A DNA stretch of 32,000 bases from positions 4,633-36,632 of the forward strand of contig JBKQMK010000202.1 of NCBI GenBank assembly GCA_052146735.1. Direction: 5' to 3'. The notes under the pieces are model-generated. The model had not been told where the DNA came from. It did not search any database and saw nothing but the letters and a program-made list of their open reading frames with translations. The DNA comes from Desulfomonilaceae bacterium (GTDB lineage: Bacteria; Desulfobacterota; Desulfomonilia; Desulfomonilales; Desulfomonilaceae). The translations under genes and the position numbers were made by a program. Below are positions 16,491 to 32,000 of the stretch, in pieces; the stretch's first letter is position 1; each line of letters begins with the position of its first letter.

Positions 16491-16614
16491 GCACCAACTG
16501 CTCTGACGCAGTACTACTCGTTTGAAAGCGCCTTGTTATTACGGGTCTTCATTGGTCGAGGAAAAGGATTAACCATTTTTTAGTTTGATCCTAATTCCTA
16601 CCAAATTTTGTCCG

Positions 16615-16676
16615 GGTAAACATTATGTAATCAAAATCCTTTTTCGATGACGAAACGTCATCCATCGCAGCAAATC
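16615..16676 (+). promoter_or_regulatory. Operator/promoter module copy B, upstream of the ptx operon
   Basis: GGTAAAC-ATTA-TGTAATC, the perfect 7-bp inverted repeat GATGACG-AAA-CGTCATC (16646-16662), and GCAAATC (16670-16676). See copy A. Confidence 0.5.
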
Positions 16677-16743
16677 TCCCATTTTACGCCGCACTCGATG
16701 CGAGGGAGATTGGGATTTCCATCCGCTGAAAGAAGGAAAGACC

Positions 16744-16869
16744 ATGGCAAGTCAGCACCTAAATCTGAAAAGTTTGGCGGCGGTCACCGCGATTGAGGCA
16801 TGTTTCCTGCTCGTTGCCCGCAGTTTCCGTGCGCAGCAGACGAAAGACGGGCAAATCGCTGAAATTTAG
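16744..16869 (+). CDS. Candidate 41-aa small ORF/leader between the ptx promoter module and ptxA
   Basis: Below the ORF-track size cut-off. GAAGGAAAG RBS, then ATG. MASQHLNLKSLAAVTAIEACFLLVARSFRAQQTKDGQIAEI*. No family recognised. Confidence 0.25.
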   Translation: MASQHLNLKSLAAVTAIEACFLLVARSFRAQQTKDGQIAEI

Positions 16870-16991
16870 TTTCCAATTTCGCAACGAGAAAGCCGATGAG
16901 GCGCTTGCTCCTTACTTAGTTTTACTCCAGCGGTGTTGAAACTGGTGTAGGGACATCACTCTTCCGCGGGATACCGGATGGGGAGAATGAA

Positions 16992-17750
16992 ATGATTGAA
17001 TTGGACGGAGTCGGCATGTGCTATCCAAGCGGAACCGAGGCACTTCGGCCGACATGCCTCAGATTCTACAAGGGACACTTTACCGTGTTGCTGGGGCCGT
17101 CTGGCGCCGGCAAGTCTACACTGCTCCGCTGTCTCAACTTCCTGACCAGGCCTACGTGCGGTCAGGTAGTCATCGAAGGTCTGGGAAAACTCGACTTCAA
17201 CGCGAGAAAACTGCGACAACTCAGAGGCTTCACCGGCATGATTTTCCAACAGCATCAATTGATATCCGGCCAGAGCGCTTTGAAAAACGTTCTGGTGGGC
17301 CGACTCGGAAAATATAGCTCGTTTCGTAGCCTCTTTCCATTGCCAAGGCGTGAACAGGAGTTCGCGTTGGAATGTCTTGAGCGAGTCGGCCTTCTGGATA
17401 AGGCGCTGGAAAGAGTGGACAACCTTAGCGGAGGCGAGCAACAGCGGGTAGGCATAGCACGAGCACTTGCTCAAAAACCCCAGTTGATTCTCGCAGATGA
17501 ACCGGTCGCAAGCCTCGATCCCGGTACGGCTGACAGCGTGCTTTCACTCCTCCATAAGATAACCAAAGAGGATGTCATTCCCGCAATTGTCAGTCTTCAC
17601 CAGGTGGAATGGGCGAAAAAGTACGCTGACCGAATCATAGGACTGTCAGAAGGAGCTGTAGTGTTTGACGGAAGCCCCCAGAGCCTGTCCTCGGACATGC
17701 TCCAGCAGATATATCACGTGAAAAAAGTGAGGATCCCGGCCGCAGCCTGA
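16992..17750 (+). CDS. ptxA: Phosphite/phosphonate ABC transporter ATP-binding protein (PhnC family)
   Basis: Walker A GPSGAGKST, signature LSGGEQQRVGIARAL, Walker B LILADEPVASLD. The symbol is assigned from operon context with ptxD. Confidence 0.85.
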   Translation: MIELDGVGMCYPSGTEALRPTCLRFYKGHFTVLLGPSGAGKSTLLRCLNFLTRPTCGQVVIEGLGKLDFNARKLRQLRGFTGMIFQQHQLISGQSALKNVLVGRLGKYSSFRSLFPLPRREQEFALECLERVGLLDKALERVDNLSGGEQQRVGIARALAQKPQLILADEPVASLDPGTADSVLSLLHKITKEDVIPAIVSLHQVEWAKKYADRIIGLSEGAVVFDGSPQSLSSDMLQQIYHVKKVRIPAAA

Positions 17751-17815
17751 GTACGAGTGACGAGACACGATTATCGTATTGGGCTGGAGCCGGACTACCC
17801 TTGACTGCCATCTAG

Positions 17816-18703
<888 letters not shown>

Positions 18704-18724
18704 CGACTGCTGGAGCGCTGTTTC

Positions 18725-19522
18725 ATGAATGAACGTTACGACCGGGTACTAATCGAACAACGGAGGCAATGGTATTATTCGGCACTCCAGATCGCCCTGG
18801 TTGCTCCTGTCATCGCAATCTGTTTCTACTATGTAGGGTTGTTTGATCGGAAACGAGTGCTGGACGGCATACCATCTATATTGAGCCTGATCGCTGAAAG
18901 CCTGCCTCCAAATTTCAGTGACCTGCCCAATTGGTTCAAACCTCTTTTGGACACCTTGGCCATGAGCATTGCGGGCACAGCGATAGCAGTGGGATTATCG
19001 CTGCCGCTGGCCTTGCTCGGAGCACGTAATACGTCTCCACACCCACTGGTGTATCAGTTCACCCGAGGCGTGCTTAACGGATTGCGCTCCGTTCCAGAGC
19101 TGATAATGGGCATCATTTTTGTGGCTGCCGTCGGCTTTGGTGCGTTGCCGGGAGTGCTGGCACTGGGCCTTCACTCAGTGGGAATGGTAGGAAAATTCTT
19201 TGCCGAAGCCATTGAGCATGTGGCAGAGGAACCCGTTGAAGCGGTCAAGGCCGTAGGTGCGCGGCCAATGCAGGTTATTCTTCATGCAGTGCTACCACAG
19301 GTCTCGTCGCAAATAGCAGACGTGTCAATCTACCGGTGGGAGTACAATTTTAGGGCGTCGACGGTGATGGGAATGGTCGGAGCAGGCGGCATCGGTTGTG
19401 AATTGATGAGCGCGTTGCGAATCATGCAATATCAGCACGTATCAGCCATTCTGATCGTTATTCTGCTGATGGTCACATTGGTTGATAGCTTTGGCGCCCA
19501 CCTGAGGCAGCGCTTCAAATAG
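18725..19522 (+). CDS. ptxC: Phosphite/phosphonate ABC transporter permease (PhnE family)
   Basis: Multi-TM protein with a PhnE-like loop RSVPELIMGIIFVAAVGFGALPGVLALGLHSVGMVGKFFAEAIE. Confidence 0.85.
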   Translation: MNERYDRVLIEQRRQWYYSALQIALVAPVIAICFYYVGLFDRKRVLDGIPSILSLIAESLPPNFSDLPNWFKPLLDTLAMSIAGTAIAVGLSLPLALLGARNTSPHPLVYQFTRGVLNGLRSVPELIMGIIFVAAVGFGALPGVLALGLHSVGMVGKFFAEAIEHVAEEPVEAVKAVGARPMQVILHAVLPQVSSQIADVSIYRWEYNFRASTVMGMVGAGGIGCELMSALRIMQYQHVSAILIVILLMVTLVDSFGAHLRQRFK

Positions 19523-19542
19523 AGCCCAAAAAGGTCTGATGA

Positions 19543-20529
19543 ATGAAACATCGTGTGGTCATAACATCTTGGGTGCACCAGGAGGTGGTCCAGCTATTAG
19601 AGCAATCGTGCGAAGTCATCCCAAATAACGAGCGGGAGCCTCTGACACGTGAGGAAATCTTGCGACGAACACAAGACGCTCATGCCCTTATGGTCTTTAT
19701 GACAGACAGTATAGACGACGATTTCCTGATTGCCTGCCCGAATCTGAAGATTGTGGCCGCGGCTCTCAAGGGCTACGACAATTTCGATGTGGAAAGTTGC
19801 ACGCGGCGCGGCATTTGGTTCACCATTGTGCCGGACCTCCTCACCATTCCTACGGCAGAACTGGCGGTGGGGCTTCTGATCGGTTTGACGCGGAAGATGC
19901 TCGACGGCGACCGCTTCGTCCGGACAGGTCAGTTCAGAGGCTGGCGCCCCAAGCTTTACGGTACGGGTTTGGCCGGCCGATGTGTGGGAATAGTCGGGAT
20001 GGGGGCTTTGGGCCAGGCGGTCGCAAAACGCCTGGCTGGCTTTGAAATGGAATTGCTCTACACAGATCGAGTCCCTTTACCAGAGCGACAAGAACAAGCC
20101 TGGGGCCTCAGTCGCGTTTCTATGGAAAGTCTTTTGGGACGAAGCGATTTTGTGCTCTTATCCGTACCACTGACTCCTGATACCCTTTGCTTTATCGATG
20201 ACAAGGCCCTTGCCAAAATGAGGCCGGGCAGCTTCCTTGTCAATGTATGTCGGGGGTCTGTGGTGGATGAGGAGGCTGTTGTGTCGGCGTTGGCCTCCGG
20301 GCATCTTGCAGGATACGCGGCCGATGTATTCGAGTTCGAAGACTGGGCCAGGAAGGACGCTCCATCGGGTATCTCCCGGTCGCTTCTCGAAGAGGGCACC
20401 ACCTTTTTCACTCCCCACCTCGGTTCGGCTGTGGACGACGTGCGCCGTGAAATTGCATTGGAAGCCGCACGCAACATTCTGCAAGCATTCGCCGGAACCA
20501 AACCCGAGGGTGCCATAAATCGACTATAG
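19543..20529 (+). CDS. ptxD: NAD-dependent phosphite (phosphonate) dehydrogenase, D-2-hydroxyacid dehydrogenase family
   Basis: Colinear with my recollection of Pseudomonas stutzeri PtxD. Shared blocks: [42 protein letters not shown] (GxGxxG), CRGSVVDE (catalytic Arg), [14 protein letters not shown] (Glu), FTPHLGSAV (His). Confidence 0.9.
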
Positions 20530-20802: not shown

Positions 20803-21123
20803 TCATTGTTGCTGCCTCCACCAGATTCTGACCCTCGTAGCTACCAGCCAGACGATCCCGAAAACGAACAGCAGAGCGCCCAGACCTGACGACAGCATTA
20901 TGAGAAAACCCATCGCCGCCAGTATAGATGCGAGAATGACGTGGATTCTCAGATCGGTCCTAATCCGTTGTCTCCCCAGTAGTCCATTATCTGAAGCGGT
21001 CACCGCCTGGCTTTGCACCAGGGGGCCGAAACCGTGCTCGTCGCGCCCACAATGAAGACATACTTTTGCTTCCGCTGGTTTATCACCAAAACAGTGCGGA
21101 CACTTAACCATGTCTGCAGACAT
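20803..21123 (-). CDS. Zinc-ribbon membrane protein: N-terminal CxxC..CxxC plus two TM helices
   Basis: MSADMVKCPHCFGDKPAEAKVCLHCG.., then IHVILASILAAMGFLIMLSSGLGALLFVFGIVWLVA. AAGGGAG RBS. Confidence 0.6.
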   Translation of the reverse strand: MSADMVKCPHCFGDKPAEAKVCLHCGRDEHGFGPLVQSQAVTASDNGLLGRQRIRTDLRIHVILASILAAMGFLIMLSSGLGALLFVFGIVWLVATRVRIWWRQQQ

Positions 21124-21204
21124 AAAATCACTCCCTTCACCAAGCTGGCAGTAAACCTGGGAGAACAGGGCAGGGCGCTAACTCACGCCTCACCATATTA
21201 CCGC

Positions 21205-21624
21205 TTATAATAGGTCCGAGGTGGTTTTGTGCGGTTTCACCGGCTTCTCTTCTTCGACTCTTTTCCGCTGTTTCTGCGCGCGTGGTGGAGGCTTCGCGCG
21301 GCCACCTCTGGCGCGCTCCTCCACAGCTCTGACTCTTGCGGTAGCTACTTCTTCAGTCGGCTCGTCCTTTTTCGTCCTCCGGGCCGACGCCGGCCGGGTT
21401 GCTTCTATCCCCTTTGCCTTTTCTCTCCCCGGCCCCTCGGTAGCATCGCCGAGAATCTGCCGACCAGTTTCATAAAGCATGAATCCGCCCTTTAGAACAG
21501 CCTTCAACACGGGCCTGGTAGCAGACCATGCCAATGGTATAACTAGAGGCGCCGCAAGCAGGCCAGCTCCCACCGCGACGCCAGTCCATAAATCACCTTT
21601 TGGTCTGAAATCCCAAATTGCCAT
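21205..21624 (-). CDS. DUF5132-like small membrane protein with long Lys/Arg/Glu-rich tail (paralogue 1)
   Basis: MAIWDFRPKGDLWTGVAVGAGLLAAPLVIPL..VLKAVLKGGFMLYETGRQ.., then the tail RRTKKDEPTEE..RAQKQRKRVEEEKPVKPHK. AAGGAGG RBS. Paralogous to 27544..27810. Confidence 0.65.
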   Translation of the reverse strand: MAIWDFRPKGDLWTGVAVGAGLLAAPLVIPLAWSATRPVLKAVLKGGFMLYETGRQILGDATEGPGREKAKGIEATRPASARRTKKDEPTEEVATARVRAVEERARGGRAKPPPRAQKQRKRVEEEKPVKPHKTTSDLL

Positions 21625-21769
21625 TTTCAGCGCCCCTCCTTCTATGCTGTTTTTGACACCGTGGCGCCATCTTCTTGTCTCCCCCTATCCTGAGCCTGTG
21701 GTCTTATCCTCCCGATGTCAAGTTAGAGTTTCATCAACGAGTGATAATTGTGACGCCGAATCAAACCGC

Positions 21770-21952
21770 TCAATCATCGACTGACTCCGTTTCAGCGATC
21801 GAACTTATTTCGCTCGCCGCCTCCTCTATCGTCTTTATCTCCTTCAGAGTAGCCTCATCCAAGAGGCCGTAGGCATCGATGAACTTTTCCAAGTAGTCAA
21901 CGATCACTTTGCCGAGATGCATCCCAACGGAGAGTCCGACCCAAAACTCCAT
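21770..21952 (-). CDS. Hypothetical 60-aa protein: hydrophobic N-terminus, acidic C-terminus
   Basis: ORF 21770..21973. Internal ATG 21952 lies 7 nt after GGAGGAG. MEFWVGLSVGMHLGKVIVDYLEKFIDAYGLLDEATLKEIKTIEEAASEISSIAETESVDD. Confidence 0.45.
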   Translation of the reverse strand: MEFWVGLSVGMHLGKVIVDYLEKFIDAYGLLDEATLKEIKTIEEAASEISSIAETESVDD

Positions 21953-22234
21953 GACGTTTCTCCTCCGGGCCAAACATTCAAGACCGGCCCCATCCTATCT
22001 GTTATTCCCAAGCCCATCAAGCCTCATGAGAATGCCCTTCGGACCGCGACAACCGCCTGCAAGCAAAAACTCCAGAACTGACTGTAATCCCCAAAAATGC
22101 CTCCACATTAACATTTAATTTGTTGCTAATACTCTCCTAACATGTGGTAGGCAATTCTTATAACAGATGCGTGCAACAAGAGCCTCCGTGGAAAGGTTGC
22201 CGCCCTGCTCGTCAAAATCGAAAAGGAGAAACGC

Positions 22235-22606
22235 ATGGGCTACTATCTCCACGAGGTGCCGGGTCGTCTGAGAATACAGATTTCATCTCTGAAGAGAAAT
22301 TCCCAGCGCGCACAGGAGGTTCAGGATCTCCTGGAGGATCTCTCCGGCATCAAATCAACCTCTGTGAACACCGTTACAGGCAGCGTAATAGTTCATTATG
22401 ATCCGGACATCGTGCATTCCAGGACCATTCTGACTCTTCTTTCCCGGGAAGAGTATATTGACGTCGCAAGAGCGGTCTCAAGCCATCAATATGTGGAAAC
22501 AACTCTTTCCAAAGCAGGTCACCTCGCGTCCAAGGCCCTTCTCGGATTTGCGTTGGACCGAGCTTTGCAGGGCTCCCCGCTATCTATTCTCGCCGCTTTC
22601 ATCTAG
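22235..22606 (+). CDS. Stand-alone HMA-like (HMA_2-type, no CxxC) domain protein
   Basis: HEVPGRLRIQISSLKRNSQRAQEVQDLLEDLSGIKSTSVNTVTGSVIVHYDPD. Same pattern as the ATPase N-terminus and ORF 26994..27515. AAGGAG RBS. Confidence 0.7.
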   Translation: MGYYLHEVPGRLRIQISSLKRNSQRAQEVQDLLEDLSGIKSTSVNTVTGSVIVHYDPDIVHSRTILTLLSREEYIDVARAVSSHQYVETTLSKAGHLASKALLGFALDRALQGSPLSILAAFI

Positions 22607-22626
22607 AGTTCGCCAGAAAATATCTG

Positions 22627-22650
22627 AAACCTACCCCACTACTAGGTTTT
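22627..22650. terminator. Possible bidirectional hairpin between convergent HMA-like and MetK-like genes
   Basis: AAACCTA (22627-22633), a 9-nt loop, then TAGGTTT (22643-22649) followed by T. The stem is AU-rich and overlaps the MetK-like stop codon. Confidence 0.3.
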
Positions 22651-23832
22651 GAGAATATCCGCTTTGTCAGTCGCCTCCCACGGCAAGTCCATATCTGTCC
22701 GACCGAAATGACCGTAGGCGGCAAGTCTGCGATAAAATCCTCCCTTAGACTTGGAAGGCAGCCTAATCAAGTCGAACTGTTTGATGATCCCGCCCAGCCT
22801 AAAATCAAAATTCTTTTCCACCAGAGCACTGATTTCATCATCGGAGATCTTGCCCGTTCCCATGGTCTCCACCTGGATGCTCACCGGGCCCGCGAGGCCG
22901 ATTGAATAGCTGAGTTGAACCTCGCACTGGTCAGCCAACCCTGCGGCAACAATGTTCTTGGCTGCGTAGCGGGCTGCATAGGCCCCGACCCTGTCAATTC
23001 TCAACGGATCTTTTCCGCTCAGAGCGGACCCGCCGTTTCTCGAATACCCACCGTATGTGTCAATTGCGTTCTTTCTGCCCGTAAGACCCGAGTGCACGGA
23101 CGGCCCGCCCAATTTCAGAGGACCCCCCGGGTTTATTAATATTCTGGTTTTTTTGTCCGGGCCTATGGGCTCACCCTCAAATACCGCCTGTACAACCGCC
23201 TCCATCACGTCCTCTCGGAGACGCTCCGGTTTGGGGTAGGTCCGATCGTTCTGGCTTGAATTGATCGTGATGCTGTGGATTCTGCGAGGCACTCGATTAC
23301 GGTATTCCACACCGACCTGTGTGGTGCCGTCAGGCGCCAGATACGGCAACACGCCCTGCAGGCGCACTTCGGAAAGTCTTCGCGAAATCTTGTGCGCAAG
23401 CCATATCGGGAGTGGCAAGAGTGTAGGTGATTGATTGCACGCAAAACCGAAAAGAGTGACTTGATCGTATGCCACGATTCCGTCAATGTCTTTCTCGGAA
23501 GCTTCTTTTTCGTCAACCAGACAAGGATGCTCCGGCGTCATTTCTTTTAGGCTGGTTAGTATACTGCACGTTTTAAAGTTGAATTCATGGTCAATGTAGC
23601 CGATTTTTCGGATGACCTTTCTGGCTACGTTCGGAAAGTCCACCTTGACCTCCGATGCAAACCTGGCAGCGATGAAAACCAGGGAGAGCGACACCGCACA
23701 TTCGGCGATAATCCTGGCACAGACGTCACGTTCGAGAAAGCGGTCTACAATAGCATCGCTTATTTGATCGCACAGTTTATCGGGATGTCCTTCGGTAACC
23801 GATTCTGACGTGTGTATGAAGTCTTTTTTCAT
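22642..23832 (-). CDS. metK: S-adenosylmethionine synthetase family protein, divergent MetK-like
   Basis: Full-length colinearity with MetK: SESVTEGHPDKLCDQISDA, GLTGRKNAIDTYGG, SGKDP, AAYAARYAAKNIVAAGLA, AAYGHFGR. The GAGDQG motif reads VAYDQV, GGGAFSGKD reads NGGSALSGKD, and GGEIT reads AARFA. The ATG overlaps the ATPase stop codon (ATGA). Confidence 0.8.
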   Translation of the reverse strand: MKKDFIHTSESVTEGHPDKLCDQISDAIVDRFLERDVCARIIAECAVSLSLVFIAARFASEVKVDFPNVARKVIRKIGYIDHEFNFKTCSILTSLKEMTPEHPCLVDEKEASEKDIDGIVAYDQVTLFGFACNQSPTLLPLPIWLAHKISRRLSEVRLQGVLPYLAPDGTTQVGVEYRNRVPRRIHSITINSSQNDRTYPKPERLREDVMEAVVQAVFEGEPIGPDKKTRILINPGGPLKLGGPSVHSGLTGRKNAIDTYGGYSRNGGSALSGKDPLRIDRVGAYAARYAAKNIVAAGLADQCEVQLSYSIGLAGPVSIQVETMGTGKISDDEISALVEKNFDFRLGGIIKQFDLIRLPSKSKGGFYRRLAAYGHFGRTDMDLPWEATDKADILKT

Positions 23833-26800
23833 TTGCTTTGCACCGCTCCGCCTTTCGTGGCTTCAGTAATGAGTAGAGGAGCCAAGGAGGCAACCCCGAT
23901 CACGAGTGCGTCAAAGGCGCCCACCGGGGTTGTACCGAGCAAACTTCTCAGTCCGGGAACAAGGAAAGTGCCCAATTGTAACCCGAGCGAACCGATGACC
24001 GCTATGTTCAGGTACTTGTTGGGAGCCGCTTTCTCCGCATCGAATATGCTGCGGTGTTCCGAACGACAACTTATCGCGTGCAGGATCTGTGATGTCGTAA
24101 GGCTTTGAAACGCTAATGTTCCCGCTGCGGGACCCATGCCGTATCTCATGACCCCGTAGCCGTACGCTGCCAGTGAAGCCGTTGTCATTGTTGCCGCTTC
24201 GAAGGTTATTCTTTTAAAATCCTCCGTTTTGACAATGGGCTCCATAGGGTCCCGGGGGGGCTGGTTCATCACGTCCGGTTCGGCCGGTTCCAGAGCCAAA
24301 GCAAGGCCGGGAAATATATCGGAAACAAGGTTGATCCAGAGTAGTTGCATAGCATTAATGGGGTATCCCAATCCCAGGGCGCCTGCTATGAACATCACCT
24401 GGATTTCGCTGAAATTGGTGGCGAGAAGATAGTGGAGCGTTTTCCTGATATTGTTATAAATGGTTCGGCCATCGCTTATGGCAATAATCAGGGTTTCAAG
24501 GTCATCTTCCTCCAGTACCACGTCAGCCACATCACGAGCCACATCAGTGCCGGCCCGCCCCATGGCTATGCCGACGTCGGCTGCCTTGAGAGCAGGTCCG
24601 TCATTGATACCGTCGCCGGTCATGGCTACAACTTTGCCGGTGCTCTGAAGAGCTTGGACGATCTGGAGCTTGTTCGATGGGCTGACCCTTGAAAAGACGT
24701 GGACCTCGCTGCTCAGGGCTTTCAAGACGGCAGGATCGGTGCTTGTGAGATGTGTCGAATCGAGAATCTCTAATGACCCTCCATTATTAAGCCCCAACTC
24801 TTTGCCTACTGCATAAGCCGTGGGGCTCTGGTCCCCCGTGATCATTACCGTTTCGAGACCGGCCTTATGAAACATTGCGATGGATTCTTTTACCCGTTCC
24901 CTTATAGGGTCGGCCATGCCAACGAGCCCCAGCCAGGTAAAACCATTTTCGTTCTCCAACTGCTCTTCGCCATTCCGGATCGCGTACGCGACGCCAAGGA
25001 CCCGCAAAGCCTTGCCCGCCATCGCGTCATTTTCAGCATCAATGAGGTCTCTGTCTTCGTCACTAAGAGGGACTGTTGTCCCGTCCTTAATTTGATGGCC
25101 GCATTTAGCCAGAACTTCCGCAGGGCTTCCTTTCATAGCAACCAATCTGGTGTTATCCACAGACCCGTGTACAGTGCTCATGAATTGGCGATTATCGGAC
25201 CGGTAGTTAGTATCCATCAACGGGTGCTGCTCTCTCAAAGCGCGAACATCCACACCTGCGCTTATGGCCATGTGAATCAGAGCGTTCTCGGTCGCAGAGC
25301 CGTTCAACACATGTTGGCGCTTCCTCGTCTCTATTTGGGTCTCGTTGCACAGCACGCAGACATGAATAAGTTTCAAGACCTCGTCAGAGTTGCAGGGATC
25401 TAAAGTCCCTGCCGTGCCATAGAAGAGACCCTCCTTTATTTCTATGCGCTCCATCCCGGAATAGATTCTTAGGACCGACATCTTGTTATGCGTTATGGTG
25501 CCAGTCTTGTCGAAACATATCGTCTGGACCGAGCCGAGCGTGCATATTGCATCGAGATTCCGGATCAGGACTTTGTGCCGTCTCATGTTCTTGATCCCGA
25601 GCGCAAGCGTGGTCGTTGCAACAGCCGGCAGACCTTCCGGAACAGCCGCAACCGCAAGAGAAATTGCCGTCTTCAACATCTGGAGAAACCCGTTCCCGCG
25701 GACGAGGCCGATGAAGAAAACTAACCCGCAAACAGCGCCGGAGATTAAAACCAGTTGATCGCCTATTGTGCTTAACTGTCTCTCAATGGGCGTCTCAGGG
25801 GCTTCGGCCTCGCCAACAAGGCACTGGATTTTCCCCATTTCTGACAATCGACCGATGGCTACCACAACTCCCAGGCCCTGGCCTCCTGTAATCAAGGTGC
25901 CCGAGTAGATCATGTTGGTGCGATCTGCAAGAGGAATCCTTGAGCCTTTGAGCGGCAATGCAATCTTGCTAACAGGCATGCTTTCGCCTGTGAGCACCGA
26001 TTCGTCGGCAGTCAAATGACCGGCCTCCACCAGCCTCGCGTCGGCAGTGACGTAGGTCCCGGGCTTGAGCACAAGAATGTCTCCCACCAGAACCTGCTCC
26101 GCGGGTATTTCCAGCGAGCTTCCATCTCGCATTACCTGGGCGTAAGGGCGGATCAGCTTCTTCAGTGAATTAATGGTCTTTTCTGCCTCACTTTCTGTAA
26201 CATAGCCAATTACCGCGTTGATGCCAACCACGGCCATAATTACAACGGCGTCAGCCAGGCCCCCGGTAACCACGGAGAGGCCGGCAGCGGCAGCCAGCAA
26301 CCCAACGGGGAGAGACATGAACTGGTCGATAAAGATCGCCCACTTGGAGCGAGAAAGCGCCTCAGGGACAACATTGAGGCCGTATTTGCTAAGGCTGGTC
26401 TTGGCTGCTTCGGCTGACAGTCCTTTTTTCTTTGAGGAATTCAGCGACGCAAGCACGAATTTGGCGTCCATTAAGTGCCAGGGCTTGGTCTCCTGCTCTC
26501 TCGTAGCAAGAAAATACGGCTCATCTTTCTTGCCGCGGGTGACCCTGAGCTCGGTTACACGGGCGGGGACGCTCTGTGGAAAAAGGCCCGAACCATTCTC
26601 TCCCTGAGACGCTTCTAGCTCTTGCTGGTAAGTTACAGCGATCTGCTCCACGTGCGAAGCGATCTTGCGGGGGTTGCAGTCGGGATCAAAGGTAATAAGG
26701 ACGTTTCCGGTCAGAATGTTGGCAGAAACTTCACCCACCTCCGGGACTTCCAAAAGCAACATTTCCAGTCGGTATTTGAGTGACACTGAACGGTAGAGGC

Positions 26801-26855
26801 CCCTGACCCTGTACCTCCCTCTACCTCTGACGGAGCTATGGATTTGTTTCACCAA
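23829..26855 (-). CDS. P-type ATPase, PIIA (SERCA-like) cation pump with N-terminal HMA-like domain
   Basis: TGES (LTGESMPV), VAAVPEGLPAVATTTLALG (TM4), ICFDKTGTITHN (phosphorylation site), MITGDQ, VAMTGDGINDGPALKAADVGIAMG, TM5 YLLATNFSEI, TM6 NLVSDIFPG. N-terminal ~75 aa: GRGRYRVRGL..VGEVSANILTGNVLITFDPD. Start is TTG 26855 or GTG 26852. Confidence 0.92.
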   Translation of the reverse strand: MVKQIHSSVRGRGRYRVRGLYRSVSLKYRLEMLLLEVPEVGEVSANILTGNVLITFDPDCNPRKIASHVEQIAVTYQQELEASQGENGSGLFPQSVPARVTELRVTRGKKDEPYFLATREQETKPWHLMDAKFVLASLNSSKKKGLSAEAAKTSLSKYGLNVVPEALSRSKWAIFIDQFMSLPVGLLAAAAGLSVVTGGLADAVVIMAVVGINAVIGYVTESEAEKTINSLKKLIRPYAQVMRDGSSLEIPAEQVLVGDILVLKPGTYVTADARLVEAGHLTADESVLTGESMPVSKIALPLKGSRIPLADRTNMIYSGTLITGGQGLGVVVAIGRLSEMGKIQCLVGEAEAPETPIERQLSTIGDQLVLISGAVCGLVFFIGLVRGNGFLQMLKTAISLAVAAVPEGLPAVATTTLALGIKNMRRHKVLIRNLDAICTLGSVQTICFDKTGTITHNKMSVLRIYSGMERIEIKEGLFYGTAGTLDPCNSDEVLKLIHVCVLCNETQIETRKRQHVLNGSATENALIHMAISAGVDVRALREQHPLMDTNYRSDNRQFMSTVHGSVDNTRLVAMKGSPAEVLAKCGHQIKDGTTVPLSDEDRDLIDAENDAMAGKALRVLGVAYAIRNGEEQLENENGFTWLGLVGMADPIRERVKESIAMFHKAGLETVMITGDQSPTAYAVGKELGLNNGGSLEILDSTHLTSTDPAVLKALSSEVHVFSRVSPSNKLQIVQALQSTGKVVAMTGDGINDGPALKAADVGIAMGRAGTDVARDVADVVLEEDDLETLIIAISDGRTIYNNIRKTLHYLLATNFSEIQVMFIAGALGLGYPINAMQLLWINLVSDIFPGLALALEPAEPDVMNQPPRDPMEPIVKTEDFKRITFEAATMTTASLAAYGYGVMRYGMGPAAGTLAFQSLTTSQILHAISCRSEHRSIFDAEKAAPNKYLNIAVIGSLGLQLGTFLVPGLRSLLGTTPVGAFDALVIGVASLAPLLITEATKGGAVQSK

Positions 26856-26993
26856 CTCGGTTAGCCTCTAAGGCGCAACAGTACACTTCCGCGCCGGAAC
26901 GCAGTACGTCACGCCGAAATTTGCCCTCTGCTTCATCAAAAAGGGGTTTAAGTTAATCTATTTATCGCAACACCGAGGGTTGGGACGTGGATA

Positions 26994-27515
26994 TCAATCT
27001 CCGTCCGCATCATCAAGTTCTGCCCCCAGATCTTCCCCCTCGTCCCATTCATCGATCTGCGCTCGAGTAAATACGCCAAGCGCGTAGTAGAAAGCTGTGT
27101 ACCATGCGGGCATGGCCAAATTTCCTCGCGCAATCTGCCAGATCCCGGAAGTTACCAAACTCACAAAAATCAGGCTGGGGATATCTACTTCGCCGCCGGT
27201 CAAATGCTTGAGGCTTTGGTTATACCCCTGAAAAGTATCAGCCACGTTGCCAAACAGACTCTTCCGGCGCGGGGCGGATCGCTTCAAGAGAAACAAGTTA
27301 TGTTCCCTGGCAAACTCGACTATGGTCTTCCTTTGACATTCGTAGGAAATCAGGGCGCTCCCCGTCTGCGGATTCACCCTGATTTCGCCCACGCCGGGAC
27401 AGCCTGAAAGTCGCTCCCGCAGAGTGGAAAAATAGGAAACCTCTCCCCTCTTGGAAGGAATTTTGATCCTGAGCCTACGGGCCATCCCATGGGACACATG
27501 AGCATCGGGAATCAT
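26994..27515 (-). CDS. HMA-like (no CxxC) domain protein with C-terminal membrane segment and acidic tail
   Basis: GMARRLRIKIPSKRGEVSYFSTLRERLSGCPGVGEIRVNPQTGSALISYE, then IPSLIFVSLVTSGIWQIA..AWYTAFYYALGVF and DEWDEGEDLGAELDDADGD. AGGGAGG RBS. Confidence 0.7.
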   Translation of the reverse strand: MIPDAHVSHGMARRLRIKIPSKRGEVSYFSTLRERLSGCPGVGEIRVNPQTGSALISYECQRKTIVEFAREHNLFLLKRSAPRRKSLFGNVADTFQGYNQSLKHLTGGEVDIPSLIFVSLVTSGIWQIARGNLAMPAWYTAFYYALGVFTRAQIDEWDEGEDLGAELDDADGD

Positions 27516-27543
27516 TCGCCCTCCCTTTGCGATGTCTGATCCT

Positions 27544-27810
27544 CTACGCTCCCTTTCCCTTCACCGGTGCCAGCTCGGCCTGCACTTCAGATCTTGCCTC
27601 GGCTGCTAGATCCTCCACCACTTCAGCGACCTCGGCGATCATCTCTCGACTTTTTTCGTAAAGCATAATGCCGCCCTTCATGGCTGCCTTTGCCACCGGC
27701 TTCGCGGCGGCCGCTATCATGGGAATTACCACGGGGGCTACTAGTAATCCTACGCCGATCGCGAGACCGGTCCACAAATCCGCTTTAGGTCTATAATCCC
27801 AAATTGCCAT
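27544..27810 (-). CDS. DUF5132-like small membrane protein (paralogue 2)
   Basis: ORF 27544..27819. ATG 27810 is preferred: it is 9 nt after GGGGAGG and aligns with paralogue 1. MAIWDYRPKADLWTGLAIGVGLLVAPVVIP..VAKAAMKGGIMLYEKSREMIAEVAEVVEDLAAEARSE. Confidence 0.65.
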   Translation of the reverse strand: MAIWDYRPKADLWTGLAIGVGLLVAPVVIPMIAAAAKPVAKAAMKGGIMLYEKSREMIAEVAEVVEDLAAEARSEVQAELAPVKGKGA

Positions 27811-28129
27811 TTGACGCATCCTCCCCTTCAGTTATTCTTAGCACTACTCCCACCGTAATAGGTTAGCGCATTGTTCAGAATATGTCTACTTTGTTAGTGC
27901 TGTATTAGAGTTGTGTTAAAAATCGCAGTTCGGCAAACTTTTTCGGTAATCGTTCACCAGGAAATCAGTTTACCCGGTTTTGCAACGCGACCAATCTCCG
28001 CGCCGATCACCCAATGCGCTATGGACGGCTAATTTTCTTGAAAGGTCGCGATGTCTCCTCCGGGACCATGCCAAGAGCGGCCGAGGCAGGCTATCCAAGG
28101 TCGGGATCAATCAGGCTATCCGGCTGCCT

Positions 28130-28249
28130 TTATGAACATAGCCTCCACATGCCGGAGAATGAGACTGCGGTGAGGAGAATGAAAACCACGAGGGACGTGA
28201 TAACCACAACGGCAAAGCCCGCAAGCGCAATCACTCCAAGCCGTTTCAT
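28130..28249 (-). CDS. Candidate 39-aa single-TM peptide, not in the ORF track
   Basis: AAGGAGGAAAC, then ATG at 28249. MKRLGVIALAGFAVVVITSLVVFILLTAVSFSGMWRLCS*, with TAA ending at 28130. Confidence 0.4.
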   Translation of the reverse strand: MKRLGVIALAGFAVVVITSLVVFILLTAVSFSGMWRLCS

Positions 28250-28510
28250 GTTTCCTCCTTATGCGTGCTGAAAATCGAGCTAATAAGTCGCACGCATGCA
28301 GATTCCACATCCTGACTGGATTAGAGGCGGCGCGATGTGAGCCCAATAAACTGAGCTGCCCTGTTTCCGTCTCTGGCCAGAGATGCGAATTGGCTACACC
28401 ATTCTCGATCAGGAGTATTGGGCGAAGATTATGGAGAGATTAAAAGATCGTTAGGACAGAGAGACTTCGCGTACAACCAATGCGTTGTCGAACAAGAGAG
28501 TTCTCAAGGG

Positions 28511-29560
28511 CTATACCCGGTCTTCAACCACGTGAAAGGACATCGTGCACGCTGTTACCATGCTTCTTCCGGAGAATAGCAATCCGGTCCAACCGAGTGC
28601 CTGCAAAAATAGGATCACAGCCGGGTCCCACAGTGTCGCAATGCCCATGCCCAGATTGGCGGCCGGGATCAATCGTCCCGGAGCGCTCCAGCCAACCAAC
28701 AGAAAGACATACACGATCGCCGCCATGCTCATGATCTGATAGGCGCTAACCTTGCCACCTCCCCGGTAATCGGCTCTGAGAAGCTCGGATACGGGTCTCC
28801 AAGCTTGGGTAGTTACTATCACCAGGATGAGCGCCGCAGAATAGCACCCCTTCAAGTAAAGAAAGATTGCAGCAAGGCTTACAGCCAGGTGCAATATAGC
28901 CGTGATGGCCTGTATGGGAATAACTTCGGTTCCGTCCAGACCTCCTTCGTAGGCTATCTTCTTGGTCTTACCTGAAAAGACGAAAGGATGACGACCTACG
29001 ATGCGCCGAATCCAGGGCCCACATTGAGACAAAGGTTTTCCGTAGCAACAACCGAAGCTTATACACGCCAAACGTCCTAAACCTTCTCCCAATCCGTATG
29101 ATATGGAAATGGACGCAAGTGCAGGAATCATGGGAACAGGATTCTTCCACCCAGAGGCAATGTCAACAATCCACAAAATGGCTGGAGTCACCAGAAAGCC
29201 CACAAAGGATGCGCCACCTATTGTGAGCGTGTGAGGCTTCTTCTCGACTGTCCGTGCTATGAACTTTGAGGCAGGAAGACAGACAGTGAGGACCATGCAC
29301 ATAATTATCCCTGTCACAGTCGCGGACACTCCGATTGCGCCCAACAGAATAAACGTGATCGCCGCGGCCACCATGATCGCCGCGGCACTGAAAAATCCAT
29401 AGTATGTGAAATTTAATCCTCTCCACCTGTTTCCCTCTTCTTTGGCCACAGGAATCGTTGCCATGATTTGCCATTTTTCTTGCGGCAAAGTCTGGAAAGC
29501 CCACCGGAGTACCAATGCGAAAAAGATTGCCAGGCCCAACACGAACGACTCATCTGACAT
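28511..29560 (-). CDS. Lgt (prolipoprotein diacylglyceryl transferase) family polytopic membrane protein
   Basis: ORF 28511..29629. Start ATG 29560 follows AAGGGAGTGGTGG. GLGRLACISFGCCYGKP resembles the Lgt-family GR.GCF..GCCYG motif. 8 or more hydrophobic segments. LLRADYRGG near the C-terminal third. Confidence 0.65.
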   Translation of the reverse strand: MSDESFVLGLAIFFALVLRWAFQTLPQEKWQIMATIPVAKEEGNRWRGLNFTYYGFFSAAAIMVAAAITFILLGAIGVSATVTGIIMCMVLTVCLPASKFIARTVEKKPHTLTIGGASFVGFLVTPAILWIVDIASGWKNPVPMIPALASISISYGLGEGLGRLACISFGCCYGKPLSQCGPWIRRIVGRHPFVFSGKTKKIAYEGGLDGTEVIPIQAITAILHLAVSLAAIFLYLKGCYSAALILVIVTTQAWRPVSELLRADYRGGGKVSAYQIMSMAAIVYVFLLVGWSAPGRLIPAANLGMGIATLWDPAVILFLQALGWTGLLFSGRSMVTACTMSFHVVEDRV

Positions 29561-29644
29561 TCCACCACTCCCTTTAGATCGCTTTTGGCATGAAATGATT
29601 TGTGCATCCGTACGCAGCAGGCAGATCACTCAGAAGCATGTTTT

Positions 29645-30655
29645 TCACTCTCCTCGTGTAATGCTGGTGCCGATTGTAGATCGCACCTTCAAGTCGGTTT
29701 CCACCAACGGCCGGCCGAAGCCTATGGAAAACCGACTTTGCACGCCGTACAGACGCAAATTACGCAAAAGATCCTCTGCAAACTTAATCCGCCCCTGCTG
29801 AAACAAGACCACATCAGTGCTGCTACCAGGCCGATACTGGCTCTTGGGTAATCCTTTCCCCAGAAACATGCCCGGTTCCACCGGTCGTGGATTTTCGTAT
29901 CGGGTTTCGCTGTAGGCCTGAACGATGTCACCGATCATCAGAGCCACGACTTCTATCATTGCAACAAAGCCGACGCCTGTTCCGCCCTGGACGTCCGTAT
30001 CTATGATGGTGACTACGCGCCTGTTTTTTGAAAATGGCGTCACAAGAGCAACTACTGCACCAGGGTTGCAGGAATGATAGTCTCCGGGGATTTCAAATAT
30101 ATCCACCACTTGCCCGGCCACAGGTGTGTGGTTGTAATGATATTTGTCCGGTGTCAACCTGAAGACCGCAAAATCTCCATTAAGGAACGCTCTGTTCCAT
30201 TCCGGCTTGTCCCGACTGAGAAGTTCTTCAAGATCGAAAAACTTTTCTTTGAGAAACAAGCTGGAACTCTCGCTCAAAGAGCCGATTATGACCCTGGAAT
30301 CCGCCGGAGACACTACGGTCACCGGCCGTTCATCCATGGATCGGCACTCCCAATATCGGATTTGACGTTCAAAGACCTTTCTCAAGGTCGTCAAACTTTC
30401 GGGCTCAACGCATTCCGCTAGGTCTACGCCGTATTTCTTCAGTGAGGCCCCGGCCCGATTAGCGAGACGAGCATCGTATTGTATGGACGCGAGCAGCCGA
30501 GACGTGCGGGCGCTGGTGAGGGCTTTGAAAAGAAACGGAGCTCTTTCTCTGCATACTGAGTACATCAGTCGGACAGCTTTGTCTCCAATGAGCCTCTCGG
30601 TGCAAACCTTCCCGGACTCTCTGTCCACGAACTGGTGCTGCATGGCCGCGATCAT
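29645..30655 (-). CDS. psd: Phosphatidylserine decarboxylase family proenzyme (long type)
   Basis: VVSPADSRVIIG, FRLTPDKYHYNHTPVAGQV, and a candidate cleavage site YRPGSSTDVVLF. ORF starts at 30691. ATG 30655 lies 5 nt after the upstream stop. ATG 30643 is also possible. Confidence 0.8.
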   Translation of the reverse strand: MIAAMQHQFVDRESGKVCTERLIGDKAVRLMYSVCRERAPFLFKALTSARTSRLLASIQYDARLANRAGASLKKYGVDLAECVEPESLTTLRKVFERQIRYWECRSMDERPVTVVSPADSRVIIGSLSESSSLFLKEKFFDLEELLSRDKPEWNRAFLNGDFAVFRLTPDKYHYNHTPVAGQVVDIFEIPGDYHSCNPGAVVALVTPFSKNRRVVTIIDTDVQGGTGVGFVAMIEVVALMIGDIVQAYSETRYENPRPVEPGMFLGKGLPKSQYRPGSSTDVVLFQQGRIKFAEDLLRNLRLYGVQSRFSIGFGRPLVETDLKVRSTIGTSITRGE

Positions 30656-30659
30656 ATAT

Positions 30660-32000
30660 TCACAACCCCTTTGAAGCGCAGACGCTTTCATGGTGTACGG
30701 TGACCAGAACCAGGTCGATGAGTGCCTTCAACACTTCAAGAGACGCAACATCGTTAAGCACATCATTTTGAACGGTGGTGAGAAATTCGCAGACCCCTTG
30801 GTCTTTTGTAGAATATGAAAGGGCTTCTCTATAATCTCTTGCGGATTCGGCCGAGCCCGATTCCATCGCTAGAAGATCTTCGTGCAGGAAACGCAAGGCT
30901 TCGACCATGTGCCGTTTCTTCAGGACCGTCCTATAGTAGCGTTCCGAAGCCAGGTTGAATTCATCTGCGGTCAAATTCATGGGAGAGTCCGCACCGGTGG
31001 ACTCGAGTATGCCGCTAGTCAATTTTCCTGCGGCTGAAAATTCTTGGGGATTCTCCAGCCTGGCCTTGAGATCCTCCACAGTGTCTTCCAAATGAAGAGT
31101 TTCGATCAGGTCAGACGCTTCATGCATGAGGAGATCGACCAAAGCCAGCCGATATTGTCGGTTGTACACTCTCAAGTACCCAGGATAGCGTCGACTGTAT
31201 CGCGCTCCTCTCGTGCGTTTCATGATGCTTTTCATGAACAAATTTCGAGTGTCATTGAAAATAAAAAAAGTTGGCAGTCCGATAGCGGAGCCGAAAAACA
31301 TTTGCCTGCGTTCACTTTCCGTAAAGGGGTCGTCGGGAATGTGGGAATGCGTGATCTTGCCTTGAAGCACCAATTTGTAGGCCAGAGCGGTCACCAGGGT
31401 TTGCAGATTGGTAGCATCAGCCATGTCGTGCTCGATGCTTTCAAACAGGCTGTAATGACGTCCCTCGAATCCCGAGAAGCCTACCTTTCTGAATTCTCGA
31501 AGTCGATAGAGCAGGTAGAGTGACATTTCCTGGTCAAACACGCCCAGGTCGGAGAGGTCCTTTTTTAAGCGTTCTTCATTTCCGAGTTTGCCATCAAGTG
31601 CGGGGCTTCTTTCGGTGCTCCTCAGCGTGACCAGATAGTCGAGGAGCCTGAAATCAGCGACAAAGTCCCCTTTCACCCGAAAAAGGCGGCTAATTGTTTT
31701 GTCGAGAAAATCGACGCCGAAAGGTGTCACCGGCCGACCTAATATTTTCAGCGTCGCTTTATTTTTCCACCGCCGCCAGATCATTCTCAAATGGGTGTAG
31801 TCAAGTTCGTGAGGCAAAAAGCCGAGAACCTTTTCCGGATGAAAATCTACGAAATCGAGTCTGTACGGCGCTGCGCTGTATGTCCCCACGAAGAGCGGGA
31901 GAAAGTGTTCTACTATCTTGATTACCAGGTCCCCCAAGAATTTTTCATGAGCCGCTGTGAATCCCGAAGTTTCGTCTGCGAGATGGGCTGTGAGCTTGGC
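30660..32000 (-). CDS. Large conserved-looking hypothetical protein, C-terminal 446 aa; N-terminus beyond the window
   Basis: The track starts it at TTG 31937, but the frame stays open through position 32000 (AKLTAHLADETSGFTAAHEKF-LGDLVIK...). No motif recognised. The stop lies 5 nt before the psd-like ATG, suggesting an operon. Confidence 0.6.
   Translation of the reverse strand, partial: AKLTAHLADETSGFTAAHEKFLGDLVIKIVEHFLPLFVGTYSAAPYRLDFVDFHPEKVLGFLPHELDYTHLRMIWRRWKNKATLKILGRPVTPFGVDFLDKTISRLFRVKGDFVADFRLLDYLVTLRSTERSPALDGKLGNEERLKKDLSDLGVFDQEMSLYLLYRLREFRKVGFSGFEGRHYSLFESIEHDMADATNLQTLVTALAYKLVLQGKITHSHIPDDPFTESERRQMFFGSAIGLPTFFIFNDTRNLFMKSIMKRTRGARYSRRYPGYLRVYNRQYRLALVDLLMHEASDLIETLHLEDTVEDLKARLENPQEFSAAGKLTSGILESTGADSPMNLTADEFNLASERYYRTVLKKRHMVEALRFLHEDLLAMESGSAESARDYREALSYSTKDQGVCEFLTTVQNDVLNDVASLEVLKALIDLVLVTVHHESVCASKGL

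Follow-up and report, generated by a model that had tools for sequence, protein, structure and literature searches.

The proteins of the ferrosome cluster fezABC bear an R-rich motif (RxR, RxRxR) at the N-terminus (bioRxiv 10.1101/2020.01.10.902569). Among them, FezB belongs to the P1B-6 ATPases (motifs D[Y/F]SCA and HNxxT) and has this motif, FezC consists of an HMA domain with two transmembrane (TM) helices and FezA is a small hydrophobic GxxxG protein; FezA and FezB together suffice to produce membrane-bounded iron stores in E. coli (bioRxiv 10.1101/2020.01.10.902569; 10.1101/2025.09.22.677801). The stored material is reported to be an iron phosphate mineral (PMC13307979). Here we describe a gene cluster in a 32,000-nucleotide stretch of DNA from a Desulfomonilaceae bacterium (GenBank assembly GCA_052146735.1, contig JBKQMK010000202.1, positions 4,633 to 36,632), referred to below as the window. 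Between positions 20803 and 28249, a P2-type ATPase, a MetK-like protein, DUF5132 proteins and HMA-like proteins are encoded in a module whose core is conserved across phyla. As in fezABC, the P-type ATPase has an R-rich N-terminus and is accompanied by a small GxxxG membrane protein and by an HMA protein with two TM helices, and both systems occur in anaerobes; the present module adds a MetK-derived enzyme, which is not listed for fez clusters in the sources cited.

The HMA-like proteins of the module belong to Pfam family HMA_2 (PF19991), for which the prediction that first drew attention to this locus, made from the sequence alone, knew of no described function. Publications from 2022-2024 onwards describe this family as the CoBaHMA domain. 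CoBaHMA belongs to the HMA superfamily and has, in addition, a strand (beta0) that bears a conserved His, as well as a conserved basic patch; calcyanin was the protein in which it was first recognised, and its hypothesised ligands are anionic partners such as lipids (PMC8890360; bioRxiv 10.1101/2024.07.07.602159). According to these two reports, it is found in single-domain proteins and also in membrane proteins for transport or lipid metabolism. The three domains in the window conform to this description, with the beta0 His, basic residues in beta1 and beta2, an HMA-like fold and no CxxC. The CoBaHMA reports cited here describe the domain family and the anionic-lipid hypothesis, but not the four-gene module, a MetK partner or control by phosphate.

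A further likeness is to the neighbourhood of the calcyanin gene ccyA in Microcystis, which is associated with intracellular amorphous calcium carbonate (iACC). There, two DUF5132 and two CoBaHMA genes lie by a Ca2+/H+ exchanger, and several genes of this neighbourhood are co-expressed with ccyA (bioRxiv 10.1101/2024.07.07.602159). Both loci place DUF5132 and CoBaHMA genes beside a Ca transporter, a putative one in the present module. In Microcystis, however, calcyanin and its (GlyZip)3 domain mark the system and the transporter is an exchanger, whereas the present module has a P2 ATPase and a MetK-like protein and its host is an anaerobic member of the Desulfobacterota. The triplicated glycine-zipper domain that marks calcyanin was found in none of the nine module proteins by inspection of translations or by Pfam. 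A link to magnetosomes or iACC was considered and rejected; the literature consulted on iACC in magnetotactic bacteria does not mention the module genes.

Gene content of the module

Window proteins were scanned with Pfam hidden Markov models (HMMs) against gathering scores (30 bits for HMA_2, 25 bits for DUF5132). The nine open reading frames (ORFs) of the original prediction were all present and are as follows.

28130-28249, minus strand: hydrophobic peptide of 39 residues; ORF with an AAGGAGG Shine-Dalgarno sequence, hydrophobic along nearly its full length
27544-27819, minus strand: DUF5132 protein "a" (DUF5132a), 91 residues; PF17195 E=3e-11, 43.5 bits
26994-27515, minus strand: CoBaHMA (HMA_2) protein of 173 residues (CoBaHMA-173), in which the domain is followed by an amphipathic helix, a pair of TM-like helices and a tail of acidic character; PF19991 E=8e-13, 49.1 bits
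23829-26855, minus strand: P2-type ATPase, 1008 residues, with a fused N-terminal CoBaHMA domain (residues ~1-75); Cation_ATPase_N, E1-E2_ATPase, Hydrolase (HAD), Cation_ATPase_C
22642-23832, minus strand: MetK-like protein, 396 residues; all three S-AdoMet synthetase Pfam domains
22235-22606, plus strand: CoBaHMA protein of 123 residues (CoBaHMA-123) with a hydrophobic or amphipathic C-terminus, convergent with the MetK-like gene; PF19991 E=3e-14, 53.5 bits
21770-21973, minus strand: small acidic protein; 60 residues from ATG 21952, or 67 residues from TTG 21973
21205-21624, minus strand: DUF5132 protein "b" (DUF5132b), 139 residues, a TM/helix core with a long basic tail; identified by tblastn, jackhmmer and alignment
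20803-21123, minus strand: zinc-ribbon (CxxC...CxxC) protein, 106 residues, with a hydrophobic stretch of about two TM helices; weak zinc-ribbon Pfam matches and hydropathy

HMM scans upheld the predicted assignments of DUF5132, HMA-like (HMA_2), P-type ATPase (P2-type) and MetK-like (three-domain MetK) proteins, and moved none of the small proteins to unrelated characterised functions. The third, divergent HMA-like protein of the prediction is CoBaHMA-123, recognised at the E-value given above. DUF5132b, predicted to be a second DUF5132-like protein with a basic tail, gave no Pfam match but is 44% identical to DUF5132a over the conserved core and carries the tail. The strong Shine-Dalgarno sequences that had been reported were found at seven module genes, as were the 4-nt overlap and the spacing of 28-138 nt in the core: the ATPase stop and the MetK-like start overlap in the sequence ATGA, by which the MetK-like gene is predicted to be translationally coupled to the ATPase gene, and the other core gaps measure 28 and 138 nt. 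With respect to start sites, the GGAGGAG Shine-Dalgarno sequence of the acidic ORF serves the ATG at 21952, while the TTG at 21973 is without one, in agreement with the 60-residue product that had been proposed. The same check placed the likely true start of DUF5132a at its fourth codon, 27810. The 39-residue peptide is possibly a real, lineage-specific small membrane protein. A search of Rfam, over the whole window at gathering thresholds and over the module at E<=1, returned no riboswitch or other RNA, the only match being a chance one to SNORD31 (E=0.29). Scans for sigma-70 promoters and for terminators were uninformative: promoter-like sites numbered 10, with 5.8 expected, and terminator-like sites occurred at chance level.

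Conservation across lineages

Relatives were scanned at one genome per species. Fifteen loci encode ATPases 67-94% identical to that of the window, all from Desulfomonilaceae or from metagenome-assembled genomes (MAGs) labelled "uncultured delta proteobacterium". Gene order in the Desulfomonilaceae loci is kept as DUF5132a, CoBaHMA-173, ATPase and MetK, then on the opposite strand CoBaHMA-123, followed by (acidic ORF), DUF5132b and (zinc-ribbon TM). More than 100 further ATPases at 58-60% identity have a precomputed PF19991 match on top of the P2 domain set. When ATPases were used as seeds, the same set of a DUF5132 protein, an HMA_2 protein of 160-173 residues, the ATPase, MetK and an HMA_2 protein of 122-123 residues was recovered from Desulfomonile tiedjei DSM 6799 (L017), Dissulfurispira (L018), a 5.6 Mb genome (L020) and two further Nitrospirota-like loci (L019 and L022). 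Orthologues of CoBaHMA-123 are present in 13 of the 15 Desulfomonilaceae loci as well as in L017-L020 and L022. As a negative control we used a 38%-identical Chloroflexota ATPase which has no N-terminal domain (L016), and none of the partners was present beside it.

Contexts seeded with MetK-like proteins of 41-48% identity are L023-L027, and four divergent representatives were looked up. The MetK-like gene directly follows or overlaps a P2 ATPase gene in three of the four representatives looked up, and a CoBaHMA-2TM gene and a DUF5132-like gene adjoin it in three of four. The fourth representative (L027) lies at the edge of a 2.6 kb contig with its upstream side out of view, the sole trace of an ATPase being a 110-residue Cation_ATPase_C fragment at the far end of the contig. 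Seeding with CoBaHMA gave two CoBaHMA-2TM proteins of 24-35% identity (L028, L029), again within arrays of DUF5132, HMA_2, ATPase and MetK genes. The high-GC lineages carrying the module are L023-L029.

The arrangement is far beyond chance. It is conserved in 15 Desulfomonilaceae genomes and in distant lineages. The core recurs in Desulfomonilaceae, Nitrospirota and high-GC lineages whichever member (ATPase, MetK-like or CoBaHMA) serves as probe, and from this recovery with three kinds of seed the conserved core can therefore be read as DUF5132, CoBaHMA-2TM, CoBaHMA-fused ATPase and MetK-like genes, together with the small 123-residue CoBaHMA protein. The original prediction had proposed that all nine genes were a deliberate assembly and had asked whether synteny around homologous ATPases was conserved. 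It is conserved across phyla, and the idea of an assembly holds for the four-gene core with CoBaHMA-123; the 39-residue peptide, the acidic ORF and the zinc-ribbon TM protein, by contrast, are lineage-specific additions. Among the loci compared, only L001 and L014 have homologues of the peptide; the acidic ORF is family-restricted, and the zinc-ribbon TM protein, likewise restricted to the family, has homologues in L001, L003, L008, L011, L012 and L014.

The ATPase

The ATPase has the full P2 domain set, the DKTGT phosphorylation site, TGDGxND, and VPEGLP in M4. Among solved structures it comes closest to LMCA1 of Listeria (E=3e-142), human SPCA1 and SERCA1a, with E-values from about 1e-142 to 1e-117. 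The best NCBIfam models were of PMR1 type and SERCA type, and both matches fell below cutoff (614.9 against 798.3 and 539 against 703.4 bits, respectively), which places the protein by its sequence as a P2 ATPase outside the curated SERCA-type and PMR1-type subtypes. Ion-site residues were read in SERCA1a numbering in the window protein and 120 homologues, using a SERCA1a reference in which every landmark residue was in place. E309, D351, N768, E771, N796 and D800 were invariant in all of these. T799 is replaced by S in 116 of the 120 homologues and E908 by Q in 118 of them, and the window ATPase has both replacements. The pump, by this comparison, keeps a nearly complete SERCA-type two-site Ca2+ constellation. 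It had been predicted to be a SERCA-like (PIIA) pump, which stands as far as the P2 set and the near-complete Ca site are concerned and does not extend to the NCBIfam SERCA-type model. It shares DKTGT, TGDGxND and residues E309, N768, E771, N796 and D800 with LMCA1, SPCA1 and SERCA1a, and differs from them in its additional N-terminal CoBaHMA domain, in E908Q and T799S, and in having dedicated genomic partners. The residue pattern is compatible with Ca2+, ion specificity not being readable from sequence alone; what the pump expels from the cytosol is most likely Ca2+ or a comparable hard divalent cation.

The MetK-like enzyme

The MetK-like protein passes the cutoff of the metK equivalog model TIGR01034 (385.9 against 309.4) and aligns end to end with solved methionine adenosyltransferases (MATs), the best PDB match among these having E=4.5e-108. 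Residues were compared in E. coli MetK numbering, every landmark residue of the E. coli reference being in place. The window protein has the HPDK motif, and residues H14, D16, K17, E42, R244, K245, K265 and D271, which the literature (Markham, Takusagawa, human MAT2A) gives as the triphosphate, Mg and K ligands, are kept in every module-linked copy. In contrast, the window protein is changed at E55R, Q98M, D238H, K269R, G117Y, G120V, K165T and F230L, and GAGDQG has become VAYDQV. Every module-linked copy has E55R, D238H and K269R, with Q98 replaced by M, L or S, GAGDQG by x-A-x-D-Q-V/A, and F230 variable; K165T is found in the Desulfomonilaceae copies. In canonical MetK, E55, Q98, D238 and K269 are presumably the methionine-binding residues, the two acidic ones holding the amino group of methionine. 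Together with F230, K165 and GAGDQG they make up the set of methionine- and adenosine-site residues, which hardly varies among canonical representatives.

An exhaustive HMMER search of 1.84 billion cluster representatives was made for relatives of this protein. Q98 and K165 are retained by all 70 canonical-class representatives (those with E55, D238 and K269), the GAGDQG glycines and F230 by nearly all of them. Some 15 representatives instead have H238 together with R or H at position 269, and their position 55 is non-acidic (mostly R or H). A neighbour-joining tree placed all 19 variants inside one clade of 25, with a mean identity of 45% within variants against 37% between variants and canonical sequences. 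The original prediction of a MetK-like protein can accordingly be kept for the three-domain fold and refined for its place in the family: judged on these alignments it is not an ordinary MetK but a member of a distinct, near-monophyletic variant clade tied to this ATPase subfamily. Compared with the TIGR01034 family, it retains the three-domain fold, HPDK, the putative triphosphate/Mg/K ligands and a score above cutoff, and departs from it in the substitutions and motif change listed above and in its separate clade beside this ATPase subfamily. We have not filed it as a S-adenosylmethionine (SAM) synthetase because the two acidic residues to which we ascribe methionine holding have turned basic. 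It is probably not a SAM synthetase; activity on ATP or triphosphate together with some other, anionic partner is more likely.

CoBaHMA and DUF5132 proteins

The HMA_2 match of CoBaHMA-173 spans model positions 9-151 of 154 and so takes in the two C-terminal hydrophobic helices. The ATPase had been predicted to carry a fused HMA-like domain. Its N-terminus is sub-threshold for HMA_2 (24.5 bits against 30) but was recovered by jackhmmer from CoBaHMA-123, and, low as its Pfam score is, it shows the CoBaHMA signature of a His followed by G-R-x-R-x-basic, in line with the prediction. We aligned 19 module domains, taken from ATPase N-termini and from proteins of 160-173, 122-123 and 86-89 residues and including all three from the window. 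The His and G-R-x-R-x-(K/R) were invariant in 19/19, G(S/N), usually as TG(S/N), was nearly invariant after beta2, and no CxxC or Cys pair was present at the HMA metal-site position in any of these domains. The basic motifs are RGRGRYRVRG in the ATPase, RRLRIK in CoBaHMA-173 and GRLRIQ in CoBaHMA-123.

CoBaHMA-173 is 100% identical to P0391, "HMA2 domain-containing protein [Desulfomonilaceae]". AlphaFold2 models were built on database homologues of the module proteins. In the model of CoBaHMA-173, residues 1-75 were predicted with a local confidence score (pLDDT) >90 and the order b0-b1-a1-b2-b3-a2 (E4-11, E14-18, H26-36, E42-48, E53-58, H62-71), followed by an amphipathic helix at 87-106, TM-like helices at 112-129 and 136-154 and a disordered acidic tail. 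Foldseek matched the model to the metal-binding domains of CopZ, MerP, CCS and ATP7B and to the YAM domain of YajR (root-mean-square deviation ~2 A), with target TM-scores of 0.55-0.71 and weak E-values of 6e-3 to 5e-2. The N-terminal domain, as modelled, has an HMA-like ferredoxin fold.

Both DUF5132 copies consist of a short N-terminus, a TM helix with GxxxGxG and a conserved K..K..GG..YE amphipathic helix. In DUF5132a the TM-like stretch covers residues 13-43 and contains GLAIGVG. The AlphaFold2 model is a single long helix (15-89) with an overall score (pTM) of 0.33. A profile search with the DUF5132 alignment gave 279 matches, all of them close Desulfobacterota relatives, and did not reach cyanobacterial or fez-cluster members.

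A shared operator upstream of the core operon and CoBaHMA-123

The intergenic region upstream of DUF5132a is conserved across Desulfomonilaceae and contains a triple direct repeat, which recurs upstream of two other module genes.

27891-27919, minus strand: core-operon operator TTAACAC-aact-CTAATAC-agca-CTAACAA, 7-mers at 11-bp spacing
22116-22143, plus strand: operator TAAT..CTAATAC-tctc-CTAACAT, lying upstream of the CoBaHMA-123 gene between it and the divergent acidic ORF
28428-28453, minus strand: operator-like triple repeat TAAY-N7-TAAY-N7-TAAY upstream of the 39-residue ORF, kept in L001 and L014

The core-operon operator is kept upstream of DUF5132a in L001, L002, L004, L005, L011, L013, L014 and L015, and the operator position upstream of CoBaHMA-123 is also filled in L001, L002, L005, L013, L014, L015 and L017 (D. 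tiedjei). Over the 32 kb window, YTAAYAM-N4-YTAAYAM has three matches against 0.15 expected (two precede DUF5132a and the third lies ~92 nt ahead of the CoBaHMA-123 gene); TAAY-N7-TAAY-N7-TAAY has five against 0.00 expected and CTAAT-N6-YTAAC five against 0.02. All 14 TAAY-N7-TAAY pairs are intergenic and co-oriented with the downstream gene, in a window that is ~79% coding. Because the motif is common to the core operon and the divergent CoBaHMA gene, it supports their co-regulation through a shared operator. The module had been predicted to be a dedicated, regulated system, and this shared operator supports the prediction, the regulation being apparently by phosphate.

Further TAAY repeat sites lie at 1796-1821, 4322-4339, 6004-6029, 10298-10312 and 15313-15327. 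The genes behind the pairs are a hybrid histidine kinase, two PstS-family genes, an operon of methyltransferase, phosphatidylserine (PS)-decarboxylase-like, GT4 and DedA genes, the LysR gene of a ptxABCD-like phosphite locus, the 39-residue ORF, the core operon and CoBaHMA-123, so that by its motifs the whole window looks like one regulon. Elsewhere, Nitrospirota-type loci have the triple motif upstream of pstS and pstC and of the zinc-ribbon/CoBaHMA-123 pair, and the TAAY motif precedes the pstS genes of L018, L019 and L022 as well as the phoH gene of L006. In B. subtilis the PhoP box is TT(A/T/C)ACA at the same 11-bp periodicity. Direct 7-bp repeats with 4-bp spacers, or 11-nt units, are the PhoP/PhoB-type (OmpR/PhoB-family) binding architecture according to two reports (PMC4832192, PMC2275107). 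As the repeat also stands before PstS-like genes of the window, and before pstS or phoH at related loci, we infer that the module probably belongs to the Pho regulon.

Phosphorus-related neighbourhood

Genes for phosphorus acquisition lie beside the module in at least four contexts and include phosphonate-binding ATP-binding cassette (ABC) transporters in L024 and L028, PhoD in L024, PhoH in L018 and L022, and PsiE in L019. In Nitrospirota-type loci the core operon is divergent from a further CoBaHMA gene, encoding 86-89 residues, on the pst side (L018 5826-6095, L022 5934-6194 and L019 2439-2708, all minus strand). This gene directly heads pstSCAB-phoU in L018 and L022, and in L019 two small ORFs stand between it and pstS.

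Within the window there are three genes for PstS-family phosphate-binding proteins, of which only the third passes the PstS equivalog cutoff; pstCAB genes were not found in the window. These and the other groups of neighbouring genes are as follows.

4353-5351; 6108-6959; 8746-9834, minus strand: PstS-family phosphate-binding proteins
10434-15272: operon of methyltransferase, PS-decarboxylase-like protein, 831-residue GT4 glycosyltransferase and then a DedA/VTT gene, bearing the same TAAY operator
15382-20529: LysR regulator, then ABC ATPase, phosphite/phosphonate-binding protein, permease and a D-2-hydroxyacid-dehydrogenase-family gene
28511-31937, minus strand, upstream of the module: membrane protein resembling Lgt (slightly under the Pfam cutoff), another PS-decarboxylase-like gene and a 425-residue protein without family match

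The genes at 15382-20529 resemble ptxABCD for phosphite uptake and oxidation, PtxD being assigned by family and context. The methyltransferase/PS-decarboxylase-like/GT4 operon may serve phosphate-sparing lipid remodelling, and its first three genes lie directly upstream of the module in L006 (5054-8960). The Lgt-like, PS-decarboxylase-like, 425-residue and ptx genes were considered as parts of the module and rejected: they accompany it only in L001, L011 and L014 and, because they are confined to these three closest relatives, are taken as neighbours in a Pho-type island.

Variation among module loci

A repetitive amphipathic-helix protein of 207-232 residues (as called) is encoded directly upstream of the ATPase in non-Desulfomonilaceae versions of the module and is absent from the window. 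Its similarity to Phasin_2, Senescence and Synuclein is sub-threshold only. A double zinc-ribbon protein of 94-102 residues (InsA/IS1595/Top1-type ribbons), which could be a DNA-binding factor, recurs beside the CoBaHMA-123 gene, and beside MetK in L028.

Amphipathic-repeat protein: L018 7299-7997; L019 3756-4439; L020 7165-7839; L021 3163-3786; L022 7261-7953
Double zinc-ribbon protein: L018 15496-15792, minus strand; L019 9582-9878, minus strand; L020 4396-4680; L022 14279-14575, minus strand; L028 11921-12229, minus strand

In Nitrospirota versions a CorA gene, joined in L018 by a CDF gene, follows the MetK-like gene (L018 12455-14097, L022 12393-13355). One high-GC lineage has a 607-residue ORF beside the module (L023 4907-6727) which, judged by eye, resembles the N-terminus of a polyhydroxyalkanoate synthase (PhaC). 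The MAG MFD01689.bin.2.77 carries two copies of the module, the MetK-like gene being cut to ~46 codons in L012 (13029-13166) and kept in L015. In several MFD MAG loci (L008, L009, L011, L012 and L014), tblastn matches to the ATPase, MetK and other genes are frame-split; these look like assembly frameshifts rather than pseudogenes.

Discussion

The explanation that we tentatively favour is that the genes form a conserved, co-regulated membrane module for phosphate-starvation-induced sequestration or export of a divalent cation. By analogy with fezABC, the module proteins would form one complex, which, under phosphate stress, would fill a membrane-bounded or extracytoplasmic compartment with a Ca-like cation. 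The P2-type ATPase would be the engine of such a complex and the basic patches of the CoBaHMA domains would dock on an anionic partner, either an anionic lipid or (poly)phosphate, while the MetK-like enzyme, instead of making SAM, would act on ATP or tri/polyphosphate or transfer an adenosyl group to an anionic acceptor. In a bolder form, to which we give rather little credence, the module would build a membrane-bounded store of alkaline-earth (Ca/Mg) phosphate or polyphosphate in anaerobes, that is, a ferrosome-like organelle with a different cation, Pho control, a MetK-derived enzyme for tri/polyphosphate or adenosylation, and CoBaHMA domains binding an anionic mineral, polymer or lipid.

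Several observations weigh against this explanation. The likeness to fezABC is architectural only, DUF5132 and FezA, and CoBaHMA-173 and FezC, having been compared by description; the module pump is P2-type (PEGLP, Cation_ATPase_N/C, Ca-type site) and not P1B-6, and its neighbours are phosphate genes and not iron genes. One context of a CoBaHMA-ATPase (L021) has the pump only, without MetK, DUF5132 or a CoBaHMA partner. With respect to Pho control, the window encodes no DNA-binding response regulator as a candidate for the operator, and the bona fide PstS gene (8746-9834) has no clear copy of the motif within 160 nt. Finally, an internal compartment cannot be told from ordinary efflux across the cytoplasmic membrane by the sequences themselves.

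An ordinary, regulated plasma-membrane efflux pump for Ca2+ or another divalent cation, with regulatory subunits and no organelle, is almost as likely as the favoured compartment reading, though doubtful in its own right. DUF5132 and the 39-residue peptide would then act like the micropeptides phospholamban, sarcolipin or FXYD, the CoBaHMA domains would be lipid-sensing autoregulatory modules, and the pump, induced under phosphate stress, would expel cations freed by use of polyphosphate or co-imported with metal-phosphate. The P2 architecture with its Ca-type site, the small single-pass partners and the Pho-type context all agree with such a pump, and no feature of the sequence demands an internal compartment. 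It leaves unexplained, however, the three or four paralogous CoBaHMA proteins, the obligatory, translationally coupled MetK-derived enzyme and the amphipathic-repeat, weakly phasin-like protein of Nitrospirota. PhoD and PhoX depend on Ca, and the pump might instead deliver a metal cofactor to secreted phosphate-scavenging enzymes such as these phosphatases, comparable to the part that the mycobacterial R-rich P1B ATPase CtpC is proposed to play in supplying metal to secreted proteins. PhoD does adjoin the module in L024, the operator is of Pho type, and CtpC is among the P-type ATPases with an R-rich N-terminal motif (bioRxiv 10.1101/2020.01.10.902569); but PhoD is adjacent in that lineage only (the contig of L025 ends before the position), and metallation provides no role for the MetK-like enzyme or the cytosolic CoBaHMA proteins, so that we regard it as unlikely.

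Equally hard to credit is a MetK-like protein that is a normal SAM synthetase paralogue for phosphate starvation, serving for instance the synthesis of phosphorus-free lipids and merely sharing a Pho island with an unrelated pump. It would account for the score above the NCBIfam metK equivalog cutoff and for the methyltransferase, PS-decarboxylase-like and GT4 lipid-type genes nearby. All four residues to which contact with the amino-acid part of methionine is ascribed are replaced, however, and GAGDQG is lost, while all or nearly all canonical representatives keep them; in lineages with the upstream side visible, the MetK-like gene directly follows or overlaps the ATPase gene with or without lipid genes nearby. 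This residue pattern and the obligate gene overlap speak against a SAM-supplying paralogue, which, like metallation of secreted phosphatases, is less likely than the compartment or efflux readings. A gene order inherited by chance, with no functional link, is very improbable indeed. Much of the first evidence did come from one family, the Desulfomonilaceae, but the same core was obtained from three probes in lineages of 41-72% GC with protein identity down to 24-41%, and the operator is shared.

The CoBaHMA, DUF5132, P2 ATPase and MetK families are known, and what appears to be new is their combination as a module, akin to P-type-ATPase-centred CoBaHMA/R-rich clusters such as fez. The literature searched on DUF5132, HMA_2/PF19991, CoBaHMA, MetK paralogues and the conjunction of Pho, Ca-ATPase and SAM synthetase did not describe the four-gene module, nor the variant MetK clade, its obligate link with the ATPase or the phosphate-type operator. 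The variant clade is automatically annotated as SAM synthetase with the methionine site lost, which makes it an annotation hazard and a candidate for new chemistry; the MetK-derived enzyme may indeed represent such chemistry.

CoBaHMA and DUF5132 are unexplained companions of intracellular biomineral systems, both calcyanin-linked CaCO3 and ferrosomes, and the present module, compact and widely conserved, gives a context for testing them. Here they stand beside a pump with a readable ion site, and phosphate limitation is the predicted inducing condition. One carrier of the module is in culture, Desulfomonile tiedjei DSM 6799, whose complete genome (CP003360) has it at 235-254 kb. If the organelle reading were true, P-type-ATPase-driven metal-storage compartments would extend beyond iron.

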